Assembly: GCA_000165345.1 (NCBI GenBank)
Contig: CM000436.1
Location: 352,001 to 416,000, forward strand
Direction of reading: 5' to 3'
DNA: 64,000 nt
Shown: in pieces, positions 2,680 through 58,026 of the stretch
Numbering within the stretch: position 1 is the stretch's first letter
Layout: the number at the start of each line of letters is the position of its first letter
The notes under the pieces: model-generated
The model's input: only the letters and a program-made list of their open reading frames with translations
Told to the model about the DNA's origin: nothing
Databases searched by the model: none
Made by a program: the position numbers and the translations under genes

Positions 2680-2817
2680 AATAATTCATAGCCTGTTTCA
2701 AATATTCTATGTTAACTTAAATGTTTTTTCCTTTGTTATTTATTAATAAATGTGAACTTATTTTTTTTTTTTTTTGCACTTCATTTAATTCATTCGTTTA
2801 AATTACGTCATTTTAAA

Positions 2818-2826
2818 TTTGGCGCC
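2818..2826. promoter_or_regulatory. E2F-like TTTGGCGCC site in divergent LMBR1-like/SMC5 promoter
   Basis: Exact TTTGGCGCC between the divergent starts at 2679 (-) and 3097 (+). CGTCA, ACCGGTA and CACGTAAT motifs are adjacent. Confidence 0.45.
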
Positions 2827-3096
2827 TAAATAAATTCATGAACACTGTACCGGTATTCATGCACAATTTTTTTTTTTTCAGTTAATATATTTATCCACAT
2901 AAATCACACGTAATTAAAAATAATTGCATTAATCATTTTGCTAAAGAAGGTAATTGAGAAACTTTTTGGAGTTATTTTTCCTCAATTCCATCTTTCCTTT
3001 ATGCAAATTCTAAGAAATATATTATAGTAACTGAATGAATGAGTTGATTGACAAATTTTGAGTTAATGATAATACTGATTAAAATTCATAAATTTA

Positions 3097-6000
3097 ATGA
3101 CTGTAATAAGTAAAAAAGGAAGATTAAAGAAAAATATTTGTGAAAGTGAACATGAAAATGATGATAAAGAAAAACAAGAAGTTAATAAAAGTAATCGAGA
3201 ATCTGGAAAAATCGAAAATGGTACATTAATTTCAATAGAACTAGAGAATTGGATGAATATAAAAGGGCCAACAAAGTATTGTTTTAATAATGGGGTTAAC
3301 ATCATTACAGGATTAAATGGGAGTGGTAAAAGTAGTGTGGCTTGTGGAATTGCAATTTCATTAGGATATGATACTCATATATTAGCTAGAGGTCATTACT
3401 TGTCATCATATATTCGTAATGGAAATACATCATGTAGATTATTAATAGCAATAAATAATGAAAAAGAGCATGAGAATCATTATATATCAGAAATTGAAAG
3501 AGTTATCACAATTGTAGAATCTAATAGAGCTAATAAGTCAAATTTGCAACCAGAAATTAGATCAAGTTGGAAATTAAATGGTAAGAAATGCTTAGAAAGG
3601 GATATAATAGCCTTAAGGAAAGGGTTAAACATTCAATTAGATAATATGGTTGCATTTCTAGCTCAACAAAGAGTTAGTCAGTTTGGTTCTCAAAGTCCTC
3701 AAGAAATATTTATCGATACTTTGAGAATCATTTCCAATGGAGAAAATTTAAAATCCAAAAATTCTCAAAATGAAAATATAATGATTGATACTACTATACT
3801 ATCTGAATATAAATTTAATGAAAATGATTTATTGAATGTATATTACCAATTTTTAAATATATTTAAGGACTCAAAAGATTGTAAATTAAGACTCAGAGAT
3901 CATGAAACAAGATTATCACAATTAAGTAATGAAATATCGAAATCCAAACAAAATGAAATTAAATATATACAATACTTGTTAAATAAAATGGGAATCTATT
4001 TGATCCATTTTTTTCAATCATTGAATGATATTTCAAATGATAAAGTTAGTTTATTAAATTTAGATGAGAGAAAAAAGAAAGTTATTAAAGTTATTACTGA
4101 AACAAGAAATGAACTCAAAAAATTGGAAAATGAGTCTTCAAAGATTTTTAAAGAACTTGAATTGGCTAATAAAAAGAAAGAAGACTTTTTAAGAAATTTA
4201 CAACATGATAAACTTGATACACAATTTAACTCATTAATGAATAATTTAGATCAAGTAATCAAAAAGTTACAAGAAAGTTACACAGATCCAAAGCTTTTAC
4301 TTGAAAGATATCGATTAAAAATGAAAGGAATACAAGATCAGATAATTGATATAGAAAATAAAATAAAGTATAGCATGGAACAATTTGAGAATGAATGGAA
4401 ACCAACATTGGTTAGATGCAAATTATATGAAGAAGATCTCCCTCATAAATTTGATAAAGTTACTGCTGAGAAGAAGAGAAAGCTATTAGGAGAAAGTCTG
4501 AGTGAAGTTTCTACCAAAAAAATAACATTACAAAAAAATATTAAGGAATTTGAGTTTATGCTCTCAAAACTAATTGAAAAGAAAAATTCTATTAATTCTA
4601 TTAATCCTGTAAACTTTAGAGAAAAGGTTCTGAGAGAAAAGTATCTTAAAAATATTAATCAAAAGGCCTTGTCAAGTTCCAAAAGAGAAAATATTCTTCA
4701 ATATTTTCAAAAGTTGAATGAGTATTCTGCTTTTGAAAATTATTTGCCAAAAAAAAAAGTAATAGGACCAATTGGAAGCTATATTTCTGTTAAGAGTATT
4801 AAATTTCAAACATTAGTTGAAGCATTTCTACAACAATTTCATTATTACTTTATCTCGGAAAGAGAGGACGTTAAATTGTTAACAGAAAGGTACCGTTTAA
4901 ATGTTTTAACATTGTCTAATTCAAAAACACCAATTTACCCAAAACTTGATGATGAAATGAAGAGTCTAGGAATTACAGGATTTCTACATGAACATTTGGA
5001 TTTTGAAGATGATACTATGAAAAACATACTATATCAAATTTCTGCTCAATTCTTCACATGCGTAATTATTGATAATCCAACATTATCAGTTGAAGAAATC
5101 CAAGAAGATCAAATTCTATATAAGATTTCAGATTGGTTTAAAAGAAAATACGATCAACCTGGAAACAAAATATCCAATAATATTCATCTGTTTATTACTC
5201 AACAAAATGTTGAAAATTATCTAGATTCAAAGAATGGAATTTTATTTAAACTTGTAACTTCTATATATAATCCAAATTCAAAAACTATATCGATGATCAA
5301 TCTTGGAGATAAAATGAATACAGTATTATTAAATAAAGATATAGTCAAAGAAGAAAACTTTGAAATTGAGCAAGTTAATCATCAAAAAAGTTCAGTTGAA
5401 ATTGAAATTGAACAGTTAGAATTGAAGATTAAAGAATCTTATAATACTTTTCAAGAGCTTAAGGAACAATACGATGGAGAAACTGCTCTACTTAATATGA
5501 TTACTGAGTGTATTAGTAATGTTCCTTTTTTATTTGAGAAAATATCTAGTTTGAAAAAAAGACTTGTTAATCTTGAAAAAGATATGAAAGAAAATACTCC
5601 AAATGAATCAGAAATCAAATTAAAGAATCAAAAACTCATTAAGTCTGCATTTATGGGTCAAAATCCATTGGATGATTTATCAGAGTCTATCGTTTTTAAA
5701 ACCAGTATATTTAATGAATTAAACAAAATTAATAAACTATTTCTAGAAATTTCTACTCAAGATTTTACTAAAAATAAGGAATTGAATGAAAAAGTTATTC
5801 AATTAAATACTAATTATTCATCATTTCAAAAAGAAATCATTCAAAAAAAAGAAGAAATAAGAAAATTTGAATTAGAAATGAATCAAGTTAATGAAGATTA
5901 TGATAAAATTATATCTAATTTGGATATTAAAAGAAAGGCTTCAATAGATTCTTATCTTCAATACTATTCAACTTATTGTCAATATTATAAGAGATTAAAG

Positions 6001-56025: not shown

Positions 56026-56064
56026 AATTGTGGCGGGGAATTGTGGCGGGGAATTGTGGCGGGA
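56026..56064. promoter_or_regulatory. Three tandem copies of AATTGTGGCGGGG (E2F-like GGCGGGAA) in CID / pseudophosphatase divergent promoter
   Basis: AATTGTGGCGGGGAATTGTGGCGGGGAATTGTGGCGGGAAA, a 13-bp unit repeated three times. Confidence 0.45.
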
Positions 56065-56311
56065 AATACTGTATGACTGAGTAAATGCAAGTATCTTGAA
56101 TGAAAAAATATTTGTGGGTATGAAAAATAGTTGATATAAACATAAAGCTGAATAAAAGAAGAAATGGAAATTAGGATTATGATATTGCATTTATGAAGCT
56201 CATAGAGTGGAGTTGCATTTAATATATAAAGAAAGAATCAAATTAAGTTAAAAAAAAGAAAAAAAGAGGTAAACTATTCAAAGTTAATAGTATATAGATA
56301 GATATAAAATA

Positions 56312-57580
56312 ATGTTTTTACCAAGGATTCCATATAGTTCAAAGCCAATAATAAGAATAGAGAATTCTGAAGAAGTTCCATTTGAGAAAGGTGTGGAATT
56401 GTTTGTTGAAGGACAGCTAGAAAAATATAATTTAGAAGAAAGGAATTGGTATTCACATGGATATAATTATTATGCAAATATAATACTTGGGAAAAGGATT
56501 TTATTGGATGTAATTCCAAATATACGTGATATTTCTCAATTTTTGGAGGATGAAAGTATCAGAAGACATGTATTATATAGAGGAGCTAGGCCAGGAAGTA
56601 TAGAACCTGATAAAATTAAACATGTAGTACGAGATACTTTAGGAATAAAGACAATAATTGATTTGAGGGGTAAGTTGATTTTTGAGGACTCCTACTTGGC
56701 AAAAGACGAGATTTTGAGTAGATCAGTTATATGGAAATATTATACTCCGACCTTTGAGAATGAAAGTATTGACAATTATATAGAAGAACGAAAGGATTTA
56801 GAACATTATAAGATAGAAAATGATCGTGAACAAGTTTCTAATGATGTAAAGACTCTGATTTTACTGAATTCTATTGATTATAGAGAACCAATAAAATTAG
56901 AAAATGAAAAAAGCAAAGAATTATCTTCGGATGATAATCAGAGCATTTCTCCATTTTGCTTGAATTGTATGAGAAGGTATAAAGGTATGGAATTTGAATC
57001 AAGTAGAAAGCATTTAAATGTTGAAGAAATAATATTTAGAAAAAGAAAGGAAGCAATGATTCCAAGAATTATTAGCTATAATTATCATTTGTTTAAATTA
57101 ATTTCTCCAAAACTTGCTGAGAAATGGTATGTTAACAAATATTTAGAGTTAAGAACAATGGGCGGGGTTTACTATGATATTGCAATTTTTGATTCTAAAA
57201 CAATTTGTAGAGCATTAAAGGTGATTACAGTTTCAATACCTCCAATATTGTTACATGGGAATTTAGGAAAAGACAGGGTTGGCGTGGTTATCGCAATATT
57301 ATTGAGCATTTTGGGAGTTGGAGAAGAGTTTATTATTAGAGATTACTGTGCGTCAGAATCTGGCTTACTTTCAATTACTGAGGCTATAGAAGCTGAAATG
57401 GAGCATTTTCCAGATTCTGCTAAGGATTCAAATCCTGAATATATAAGGTATTTTCTTTCAAAAATGAAGGAGGAGTTCGGAAATATGGATGCTTATTTGG
57501 ATTTAATCGGATTTGATGCTAGTTGGAGATATAAACTATGCAATAAATTCAAAATAGTGCCTTATACCAATAGCAATTAG
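56312..57580 (+). CDS. Tyrosine-phosphatase-family (Y_phosphatase3-like) protein with catalytic Cys replaced by Gly (predicted pseudophosphatase)
   Basis: 422-aa ORF starting at ATG. NIRDISQFLE...LYRGARPG...IKTIIDLRG matches the PF13350-type family. The P-loop reads LHGNLGKDRVG where HCxxGKDRTG is expected: the CAT GGG codons at 57254-57259 give His-Gly instead of His-Cys. Confidence 0.6.
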   Translation: MFLPRIPYSSKPIIRIENSEEVPFEKGVELFVEGQLEKYNLEERNWYSHGYNYYANIILGKRILLDVIPNIRDISQFLEDESIRRHVLYRGARPGSIEPDKIKHVVRDTLGIKTIIDLRGKLIFEDSYLAKDEILSRSVIWKYYTPTFENESIDNYIEERKDLEHYKIENDREQVSNDVKTLILLNSIDYREPIKLENEKSKELSSDDNQSISPFCLNCMRRYKGMEFESSRKHLNVEEIIFRKRKEAMIPRIISYNYHLFKLISPKLAEKWYVNKYLELRTMGGVYYDIAIFDSKTICRALKVITVSIPPILLHGNLGKDRVGVVIAILLSILGVGEEFIIRDYCASESGLLSITEAIEAEMEHFPDSAKDSNPEYIRYFLSKMKEEFGNMDAYLDLIGFDASWRYKLCNKFKIVPYTNSN

Positions 57581-58026
57581 TTTTATATAGAAAAAAAGTG
57601 AAATATCTTTTTTGCATTTATTATTATTATTATTATTGTTGTTGTTATTAATATTACACGTAAGTGCAATTTAGCATGCAATTTTTTTCTAGAAATAATT
57701 TCCCACGTACCGGCGTTGATAATTTTTGCCAATAATTTTTTTTTAGTAAAACCGGTATATAATTTTTGTCCACACTGGCGGTGACGTAATTATTATTAAG
57801 ATTAGAAATTAAAAAGTTGTAGAATTTTTTTTTAATAAATAAAATAAAGTTTGTAAAATTAGTATTAAAAAATCTGCAATAGTTGGGACAGATAATTTCT
57901 GAAAGAAAAAAAGGGTTTTTTTTTTGTAAGCGAAGACTTTATTGATATTTAAATTAAGTTGTTGCCGATGTGGATTGAATAATACGTTAGGGCAATTCTA
58001 ATAAACCGGTGAAATTGTTTCGAAAC

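Follow-up and report, generated by a model that had tools for sequence, protein, structure and literature searches.

Predicted compact cis-regulatory modules between genes of Cryptosporidium parvum chromosome 8

Recurring words in intergenic DNA

A 64-kb stretch of Cryptosporidium parvum chromosome 8 (GenBank assembly GCA_000165345.1, contig CM000436.1, positions 352,001 to 416,000; hereafter ‘the window’, in whose coordinates all features are given) raises the question of whether the short GC-containing words that recur between its genes are regulatory elements or an accident of base composition. An earlier sequence-only reading of the window listed six such motif types and proposed that they represent a modular promoter architecture rather than chance. 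This proposal is borne out by intergenic enrichment, co-occurrence within the same spacers, tight clustering and cross-species conservation of the sites. We consider it very probable that these words form compact cis-regulatory modules, that is, predicted promoter-proximal clusters of transcription-factor sites.

The window has a G+C content of 27% and contains long open reading frames (ORFs), mostly without introns, that are densely packed on both strands. The chromosome that carries it is 1.34 Mb long. The predicted proteins of the window are identical to Iowa II entries, for example EAK89350 (Spo11/Top6A) and EAK89361, and the genes identified run from cgd8_1350 to cgd8_1510 (gene assignments and product names from the Tandel 2019 supplement). 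Masking of 25 gene models left 12.5 kb of intergenic DNA in 25 spacers and 51.5 kb of coding DNA. The spacers are very A+T-rich (78% A+T, GC 0.14–0.29).

We counted motif words in intergenic DNA, in coding DNA and in 500 dinucleotide shuffles of the intergenic DNA. CACGTAA was found nine times in spacers (three times in coding DNA, shuffle mean 0.42), TGTCCACA five times (1, 0.10), ACCGGTAT seven times (1, 0.08), TGCATGCA nine times (2, 0.11), TTGGCGCC ten times (1, 0.03) and TGACGTMA four times (1, 0.16). Intergenic density is thus 10–35× that of coding DNA, and no shuffle reached the observed counts, except for TGACGTMA (1 of 500). These are the coding and shuffled controls that the earlier reading had proposed, here run on the window, and they reveal strong enrichment of the motif words in spacers.

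An unbiased scan of intergenic 6–8-mers against a second-order Markov model gave, besides poly(A/T), GCATGCA, GGCGCCA, ACCGGTA(T), CACGTAA/ACACGTAA, TGTCCACA/GTGGACAA and AATGACGT as top words (in short form, TGCATGCA, TTGGCGCC, ACCGGTAT, ACACGTAA(T), (T)GTCCACA(T) and AATGACGT). Because the scan returns the same words, essentially the whole over-represented spacer vocabulary had already been picked out by eye. Aligned instances refine the consensus sequences to (T/A)(A/C)CACGTAAT(T), with a variant TGACGTAAT; (T)GTCCACAT(G/A); and (C/T/A)ACCGGTAT, which three times forms the 8-bp palindrome TACCGGTA.

In spacers of this composition any GC-bearing word catches the eye, and 12.5 kb is a small sample; the words might thus be merely conspicuous. 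Yet dinucleotide shuffles and the second-order Markov model expect 20–300× fewer copies than observed, the sites co-occur and cluster, and their conservation across species is well over the spacer background (see below). Chance or compositional artefact is already refuted by the shuffles, the unbiased scan and conservation, and we assign it a negligible probability.

All six motif types are present near the positions originally listed, with coordinate errors of 0–16 bp. The full 8-mer CACGTAAT/ATTACGTG lies in intergenic DNA at 2907, 9243, 26783, 34527, 46641 and 50573, and two copies within ORFs (30534 and 42715) had been overlooked. These six intergenic sites account for the full matches among nine originally listed; the others are partial matches at 46600 (7/8, CACGTAAA), 57658 (7/8, CACGTAAG) and 57706 (6/8, CACGTACC). 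TGTCCACA/TGTGGACA is found at 33277, 40746, 46663, 50607 and 57767, as well as at 50103 in coding DNA, and TCCACATAAAT at 2894 and 9220. TGTCCACA had been called a palindrome, which it is not, as its reverse complement is TGTGGACA. ACCGGTA is located at 2848/9, 9265, 33253/4, 46698, 50535/6 and 57751, and within an ORF at 30581; TGCATGCA at 12386/12390, 26834, 33224, 40808/40817 and 46751 (only TGCATG is present at 46735, the position originally listed); and TGACGTMA at 2803, 40786 and 57782. The description of some sites as ‘G-box-like’ is a misnomer, as CACGTG is absent from the whole 64 kb. In Cryptosporidium usage, ‘G-box’ denotes G.GGGG.

Presence or absence across 20 spacers (one-sided Fisher tests) links three of the motif types to one another. 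GTCCACA/TCCACAT and ACCGGTA have six spacers in common, with one and zero spacers, respectively, in which either is found alone (p = 0.0002). ACGTAA-type sites are associated with ACCGGTA (p = 0.007) and with GTCCACA (p = 0.02). GGCGCC was also supposed to accompany the clusters. It lies within 150 bp of only two of nine clusters (2821 and 26870), and in the 20 spacers it has no positive association with ACGTAA, GTCCACA or ACCGGTA. GGCGCC is present in one of seven GTCCACA/TCCACAT spacers, and in one of six spacers that carry two or all three of the new motif types versus seven of the 14 others. We therefore rejected GGCGCC as a cluster member; the spacers that contain it are mostly a different set, and mutual exclusion is not established (hypergeometric probability ~0.19 for an overlap of at most one).

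Sites are tightly packed. Across eight module-bearing spacers (428–1136 bp), they span 71–149 bp in six and ~305–311 bp in two, and none of 10,000 random placements was equally compact. Module centres are 166–681 bp from flanking start codons. Homopolymer T/A runs of at least 8 are weakly enriched at modules (11 of 21 versus 6.4 expected, p = 0.03). Order, orientation and spacing vary from module to module. A fixed order or spacing between motif types in C. parvum was rejected: GTCCACA and ACCGGTA are separated by 16–76 bp, in both orders, and spacing is conserved only between orthologues.

Several modules have four or five common words within ~100 bp, which might suggest descent from one ancestral element, the modules then being what is left of a dispersed repeat or mobile element carrying the words. 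We consider such an origin highly improbable. The arrangement of sites is different in every module, a window-wide search recovered only coding low-complexity repeats and A+T-rich chance pairs rather than extended similarity, and each module is conserved in its orthologous place amid conserved gene order. Neither a shared feature order nor extended similarity was found between modules, and the mobile-element reading was rejected.

To follow the modules across species, we used WDR3-anchored syntenic loci from C. meleagridis, chipmunk genotype I, C. ubiquitum, C. canis, C. felis, C. ryanae and C. muris, acyltransferase-anchored loci from C. canis, C. felis and one further sample, and a calpain-anchored locus from C. 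ubiquitum. Gene order is conserved at the fetched loci. The words of four module-bearing spacers recur in orthologous places as far as C. canis and C. felis, and in part in C. ryanae, and the spacing of sites is conserved between orthologues. In MAFFT alignments, the motifs appear as identity islands amid diverged sequence, and orthologous promoters of seven other intestinal-clade samples share such islands. Upstream of the formin gene they include ATTACGTCACCGCCAGTGTGGAC...ATATACCGGTTT, and the region upstream of WDR3 has ATGTGGACAAAT, ATTACGTGGCGCATGC, TACCGGTAT and a GGCGG...CCGCC dyad.

We quantified this pattern in six orthologous spacers from C. meleagridis, chipmunk genotype I, C. ubiquitum, C. 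canis, C. felis and C. ryanae. Mean identity to C. parvum is 0.77 in motif columns versus 0.56 in the rest, and none of 2000 circular mask shifts reached 0.77. Each intestinal-clade species also has these words in excess between its genes. Individual sites are thus under purifying selection across the intestinal Cryptosporidium clade, and the modules combine two general features of cis-regulatory modules, clustering beyond chance and purifying selection on sites.

The gastric species C. muris may use a different promoter vocabulary. Its syntenic locus has no ACGTAA, GTCCACA or ACCGGTA sites in 7.6 kb of spacer, and AGCAGTT occurs five times in four spacers (0.26 expected) and TTGTACT seven times (1.4 expected), a pattern that, in so small a sample, is only suggestive. 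The C. muris locus also lacks the glucosidase II alpha gene between a PP2C-like gene and DNA primase, where ~800 bp are found (compare 36625-40332 in the window), and its CID-domain gene is much larger (711 aa, with RRM and Surp domains).

Several observations bear on whether the sites act in RNA, as 5' or 3' untranslated region (UTR) elements for translation, stability or processing. Modules 33199-33285 and 46600-46760 are 420–680 bp from the start codon and 120–340 bp past the neighbour’s stop and could lie in UTRs, and translational repression is documented in female stages (PMC11078545). Because many sites are palindromes (TACCGGTA, TGCATGCA and TGACGTCA), sites are found in both orientations relative to the downstream gene and one has flipped strands between species, they more plausibly act on DNA, and we view an RNA-level role as very unlikely. 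In divergent spacers, moreover, one module serves two opposite genes, and the co-clustered TGCATGCA and E2F words are established DNA-binding sites. The window yielded no Rfam match at gathering score and no tRNA.

A DNA function unrelated to the control of transcription, whether in replication origins, in chromatin boundary elements or simply in keeping nucleosomes away, has an equally low probability in our estimation. Poly(dA:dT) runs adjoin many modules, modules recur about every 5–8 kb, and their genes have no expression class in common, all of which would suit such a role. The modules nevertheless follow the 5' ends of genes instead of a regular interval (8 of 10 clusters share their spacer with one or more gene starts), genuine transcription-factor sites are among their components, and their conserved part consists of 7–9-bp words, not just A/T runs.

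As predicted cis-regulatory modules, these clusters would allow several sequence-specific factors to bind side by side in a short, probably nucleosome-depleted region. Each module comprises 70–150 bp with several short sites in variable order and orientation, drawn from five types: TGCATGCA (AP2_1), TTTGGCGCC/GGCGGG (E2F/DP), ACGT-core, (T)GTCCACAT(G) and (C/T)ACCGGTAT, often as TACCGGTA. One module would serve one gene or a divergent pair, in divergent spacers usually facing two genes; E2F/DP sites mostly mark a separate promoter set. Protein binding at the sites would set transcription, and combinations of sites, rather than any single site, may set the expression pattern.

Yeast-type compact promoters have a nucleosome-depleted region, poly(dA:dT) and clustered factor sites, and are often bidirectional. 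The C. parvum modules resemble the compact promoters of yeast and other small-genome eukaryotes in their short extent, flanking T/A runs and position between divergent genes. They differ in that the Cryptosporidium factor repertoire is lineage-specific (ApiAP2, E2F/DP and others).

Individual modules and other clusters

Two modules in divergent spacers are conserved in C. ubiquitum, over a background identity of 65–70% in aligned columns. Module 2803..2914, between an ORF at 1093-2562(-) and an SMC gene at 3097-7041(+), contains TGACGTAAT (2803, minus strand), TTTGGCGCC (2818), TACCGGTAT (2848), CATGCA (2858), TCCACAT (2894) and CACGTAAT (2907), and is flanked or interrupted by T15 and T12 runs. 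C. ubiquitum keeps ACGTCAT, TTTGGCGCC, TACCGGTATTCATGC and CACACGTAA. Module 9220..9310, upstream of a calpain gene (9624-12335, plus strand), contains TCCACATAAAT (9220), ATTACGTG (9243), CACCGGTAT (9263), TGCATG (9287) and TTACGTGGC (9303). Here C. ubiquitum keeps ATTACGTGTATT, AAACACCGGTATATTGCAAGTAAAA and CTTACGTGGCA and has not kept the TCCACAT site.

The same spacer (8788-9623) has a second conserved block at 8985-9050 (TTCCCGCTCAAAGTCACCTGGTACATGTG...ATGTGTGCAATGGTAGAGACTGACATTTGTGAC) that starts with an E2F-like TTCCCGC and is highly similar in C. ubiquitum. This block is probably a separate promoter of the minus-strand gene at 7393-8787, and the divergent spacer may therefore hold one module per gene.

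Module 26783..26900 is upstream of the nucleotide-sugar transporter gene cgd8_1370 (27112-28398, plus strand). It contains ACACGTAATT (26781), a T13 run, TGCATGCA (26834), TGCATG (26859), TTTGGCGCC (26867) and CCACGTCATT (26888), and apart from it only one other module has a canonical E2F site no more than 150 bp away. Module 33199..33285 is upstream of the female-specific gene cgd8_1390 (ORF 31778-32689, minus strand), ~550 bp from the ATG, and contains TCCACATGCA (33198), TGCATGCA (33224), ATACCGGTAT (33252) and TGTGGACA (33277). The divergent spacer between the acyltransferase (cgd8_1400) and DNA primase large subunit (cgd8_1410) genes holds an isolated TTGCCCGCCAATTACGTGGGG at 34518..34540, in which an E2F-like GGCGGGCAA abuts ATTACGTG.

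Module 40746..40830 lies in the divergent spacer between the genes for glucosidase II (36625-40332, minus strand) and PP2C (41469-43727, plus strand). Its sites are TGTCCACATGCA (40746), AATGACGTCATT (40784, a perfect cAMP response element (CRE) palindrome) and TGCATGCATTGCATGCA (40808). Mean identity over five other species is 0.86–0.89 for GTCCACA/TCCACAT, 0.80–0.83 for ACGTCA, 0.70–0.73 for the two GCATGC copies and 0.56 for the rest of the spacer. A scan of the C. felis orthologue, with boundaries estimated, recovered GTCCACA and TGCATGCA and not TGACGTCA.

Module 46600..46760 is upstream of cgd8_1440 (44923-46257, minus strand), which encodes a TPT (triose-phosphate transporter) family transporter, and contains TTTACGTGTAA (46598), ATTACGTGTA (46641), TGTGGACA (46663), CACCGGTAT (46696), TGCATG (46735) and GCATGCATGCA (46749). 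Identity at its GTCCACAT site is 0.95–1.00 over six other species. Module 50484..50615, upstream of the WDR3 gene cgd8_1450 (47099-50383, minus strand), contains an E2F-like dyad TTTGGCGGAACTTTACCGCC (50484), ATACCGGTAC (50534), GCATGCGCCACGTAAT (50567) and TGTCCACATGA (50607); identity over six other species is 0.90–0.97 at ATTACGTGGCGCATGC and TACCGGTAT. Separately, ~70 bp directly upstream of the WDR3 start codon (TTGATTTTTTGATTGGAA...GGTAGGAATAAAGTTAGGAGTACATGTTGAT; 50384-50470) show stronger conservation, as far as C. felis, than the remainder of the spacer, and this block is presumably a 5' UTR or initiation region.

Module 57657..57790 is upstream of the formin (FH2) gene cgd8_1500 (58009-60930, plus strand) and contains CACGTAAG (57657), GCATGCA (57674), CCACGTACCGGCG (57702), AACCGGTAT (57749) and TGTCCACACTGGCGGTGACGTAAT (57767-57790). 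Its composite ATTACGTCACCGCCAGTGTGGAC is unchanged from C. parvum to C. felis, with a fixed 13-bp spacing. Other genes identified in the window are Spo11 (cgd8_1350), RPC5 (cgd8_1460), PHAX (cgd8_1470), a tyrosine phosphatase (cgd8_1490) and cgd8_1510 (ORF start 61323).

The assumption that all sites are in promoters does not hold, as two clusters are located elsewhere. The first, 12376..12397 (ACACGTCATT followed by TGCATGCATGCA, with the array at 12386), is in a 222-bp 3'-3' (convergent) spacer at 12336-12557. In the corresponding C. ubiquitum spacer, the TGCATGCA array is kept and ACGTCATT is on the other side and the other strand, a move that looks like classic binding-site turnover. This cluster is not the promoter of an annotated mRNA and is possibly a promoter of an antisense or non-coding RNA. 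Antisense and internal transcripts are common in C. parvum. Antisense long non-coding RNAs with E2F or AP2_1 motifs upstream have been reported in this species (PMC7840661).

The second is a complete four-motif cluster at 30505..30590, inside ORF 29120-31654 (cgd8_1380), with GTCCACA (30505), CATGCA (30525), ACACGTAAT (30532) and CACCGGTAT (30579). Gene calls in three other species likewise treat the ORF as one gene. One species retains ACACGTAAT, which reads ACACGTCAT in C. canis and is not retained in C. felis; ACCGGTAT is retained in C. canis and not in C. felis. The cluster is possibly an internal or antisense promoter, or a coincidence within a conserved coding segment. We did not retain it as an internal promoter, as motif conservation is partial, the coding segment is moderately conserved, and coding and regulatory constraint are inseparable there.

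Low-complexity sequence also occurs within coding regions. In cgd8_1380, a (GAACAA)n / Glu-Gln repeat array at 29733-30002 is nearly unalignable between species (0.02–0.12 invariant columns). ORF 13790-22216 (cgd8_1340) contains a very long glutamine/histidine-rich tract at 14000-16100, where local G+C rises to 0.36, GC and AT skew are strong and numerous families of direct repeats overlap.

Motif types and candidate factors

E2F and AP2_1 are the best-documented upstream motifs of C. parvum (PMC3734150; PMC12246861 Table 3), and TGCATGCA as an ApiAP2 site and GGCGCC as an E2F/DP site are established. TTGGCGCC in the window matches the E2F/DP consensus TTTSGCGCC / TGGCGCCA or TTTGGCGGGAA and is over-represented in spacers. 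As in the C. parvum E2F/DP motif described previously (Oberstaller 2013, PMC3734150; Xiao 2025 preprint), its copies are conserved, often paired and upstream of genes; they differ in falling outside the cluster described by the earlier reading. Paired TTGGCGCC sites at 197..224 represent an E2F-only promoter type that is conserved in C. ubiquitum and others. Further E2F sites without ACGTAA, GTCCACA or ACCGGTA are at 22308, 24087 (with TGCATGCA 45 bp away, at 24042), 28794, 44056 and 53731/53749, and the E2F-like half variants TGGCGG and GGCGGT are inside two modules. The site at 44056 is in a seemingly empty 1.2-kb ‘convergent’ spacer (43728-44922) where all other species have an intron-containing Erv1/Alr gene, and is likely a promoter element of that gene.

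TGCATGCA has the properties of an ApiAP2 AP2_1 site, for which cgd2_3490, cgd1_3520 and others are binders: its palindromic core is over-represented in non-coding DNA and kept at orthologous positions. Exact copies are often in tandem (12386/12390, 40808/40817, 46749) and one is upstream of cgd8_1390. The related TGCATGYR is enriched in macrogamont-specific promoters and has been tied to the ApiAP2 protein cgd2_3490 (PMC11078545). The motif itself is nothing new; what is new is its habitual neighbours GTCCACAT, ACCGGTAT and ACGT-core sites.

In the set of 25 intergenic ACGT sites, every pairing of the half-sites ATTAC, ATGAC and (A/C)CAC is represented (ATTAC+CAC, 9; ATTAC+TGAC, 2; ATGAC+CAC, 2; ATGAC+ATGAC, 1; ATTAC+ATTAC, 1). 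Typical forms are ACACGTAAT, TGACGTAAT, CACGTCATT and TGACGTCA. This recombination of half-sites around an ACGT core is shared with bZIP elements, including the CRE TGACGTCA, the PAR-type TTACGTAA and the plant G-box CACGTG. In contrast to these, the commonest form in the window, ACACGTAAT, is an asymmetric hybrid, and CACGTG is missing. Of the symmetric forms, there is only one perfect TGACGTCA and one intergenic TTACGTAA. From these half-sites we infer that the ACGT-core family would be the target of a dimeric bZIP-type factor. A single C. parvum bZIP protein is listed outside the CCAAT-binding group (PMC3734150 Table 2). The palindromic TACCGGTA, in turn, suggests a homodimer.

The earlier reading could assign ACCGGTA and TGTCCACA to no known factor, and both are indeed absent from C. 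parvum motif tables and from the protein-binding microarray (PBM) specificities of 18 ApiAP2 proteins. ACACGTAAT, GTCCACAT and ACCGGTAT match none of the published PBM consensus strings for these 18 proteins, a comparison made with the strings and not the raw data. Primary PBM motifs are TGCAT, GCACAC/CACACA, GTGTGT, GCGTGCA, AAAA and G.GGGG, and four proteins gave no motif (PMC12246861 Table 4); these four are possible binders. The factors for the ACGT-core, GTCCACAT and ACCGGTAT sites would not be ApiAP2 domains from which a PBM motif was obtained. Five AP2 domains are missing in C. muris, and likewise five in C. andersoni (PMC12246861).

Published motif catalogues recognise six families, AP2_1, AP2_2, G-box, E2F, GAGA and CAAT (PMC12246861). 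None of these and none of the 25 motifs in Table 1 of Oberstaller 2013 corresponds to ACACGTAAT or ACCGGTAT. We found no mention of ACCGGT, and a literature search that combined Cryptosporidium with the exact motif strings, which did not cover Bankier 2003 or Walzer 2024, returned nothing relevant. Marginal precedents are a FIRE motif CACGTA/TACGTG, given for three expression clusters and confined to a supplementary table (PMC3734150), and a MEME word TTTCCACATACAA for expression cluster 124 (PMC3734150 supplement). An ‘unknown motif’ A[T/A]G[T/A]GGA.A, unclassified, has been described upstream of four Class II oocyst-wall protein genes (Oberstaller 2013). The reverse complement of TGTCCACAT, ATGTGGACA, fits this motif, and several GTCCACATG sites (TCCACATGC/TCCACATGA) contain FIRE Motif 7, ACATGY. 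Unlike the oocyst-wall motif, the window copies are upstream of housekeeping-type genes (WDR3, formin, transporter) and are conserved between species. All three motif types are thus conserved, have no assigned factor and were at most marginally noted before.

Expression context and implications

Promoter swaps have demonstrated that C. parvum promoters confer stage specificity (PMC6877471). Correlation of the motifs with expression clusters, as the earlier reading suggested, yielded no common cluster: cgd8_1450, cgd8_1500 and cgd8_1370 belong to quantitative PCR (qPCR) clusters 49, 74 and 107, respectively, and a single expression programme, for example a female-specific one, was rejected. cgd8_1390 has a log2 fold change of 6.1 in female versus asexual stages (Tandel 2019 supplement). 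The female-enriched list contains no other module gene, and the cgd8_1390 module has no ACGTAA site.

Several points weigh against the cis-regulatory reading. First, a role as promoter of the adjacent mRNA misfits both the full cluster inside an ORF and the cluster in a 3'-3' spacer. Second, module genes are in different qPCR clusters, without a common expression output. Third, the 420–680 bp that separate some modules from the start codon are a long distance in a compact genome unless 5' UTRs are long. Fourth, in sporozoites, the assay for transposase-accessible chromatin with sequencing (ATAC-seq) gave E2F and poly-T as the only motifs reported for open chromatin, with no AP2 motif (bioRxiv 10.1101/2025.01.17.633476). 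Finally, our sample comprises 64 kb and 20 spacers of a 9-Mb genome, and genome-wide generality is an extrapolation.

Some of these observations can be accommodated. Different expression clusters fit combinatorial site use. Given the sporozoite motif content, modules, if active, are therefore probably active at intracellular stages, unless the sporozoite study overlooked them. In the same ATAC-seq study, over half the regulatory peaks were annotated as bidirectional promoters, and poly-T was enriched (bioRxiv 10.1101/2025.01.17.633476).

A bolder possibility, which we hold only tentatively and think somewhat doubtful, is that ACACGTAAT-type, GTCCACAT and ACCGGTAT sites mark a second major promoter class of intestinal-clade Cryptosporidium beside E2F, with its own uncharacterised factors, that is absent or replaced in C. 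muris. Candidate factors include the single bZIP outside the CCAAT-binding group, a Myb or zinc-finger protein, and ApiAP2 proteins without a PBM motif or lacking in C. muris. If such a class exists, earlier surveys would have missed it. Their silence on these motifs may be due to a search design based on expression clusters, as no one profile unites the modules.

Overall, these modules are a useful addition to a known kind of system and not a new kind, as two of the five site families are textbook elements. Cryptosporidium is a leading cause of childhood diarrhoea, and its gene control is poorly understood; to our knowledge, most of its predicted transcription factors have no known target sequence. 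The three added elements, strongly conserved between species and co-clustering, provide concrete baits for factor binding and concrete bases to mutate. If the pattern extends to the whole genome, these elements would account for some of the promoter logic in genes without E2F sites, aid the design of compact synthetic promoters for transgenesis and indicate regulatory divergence between intestinal and gastric Cryptosporidium.

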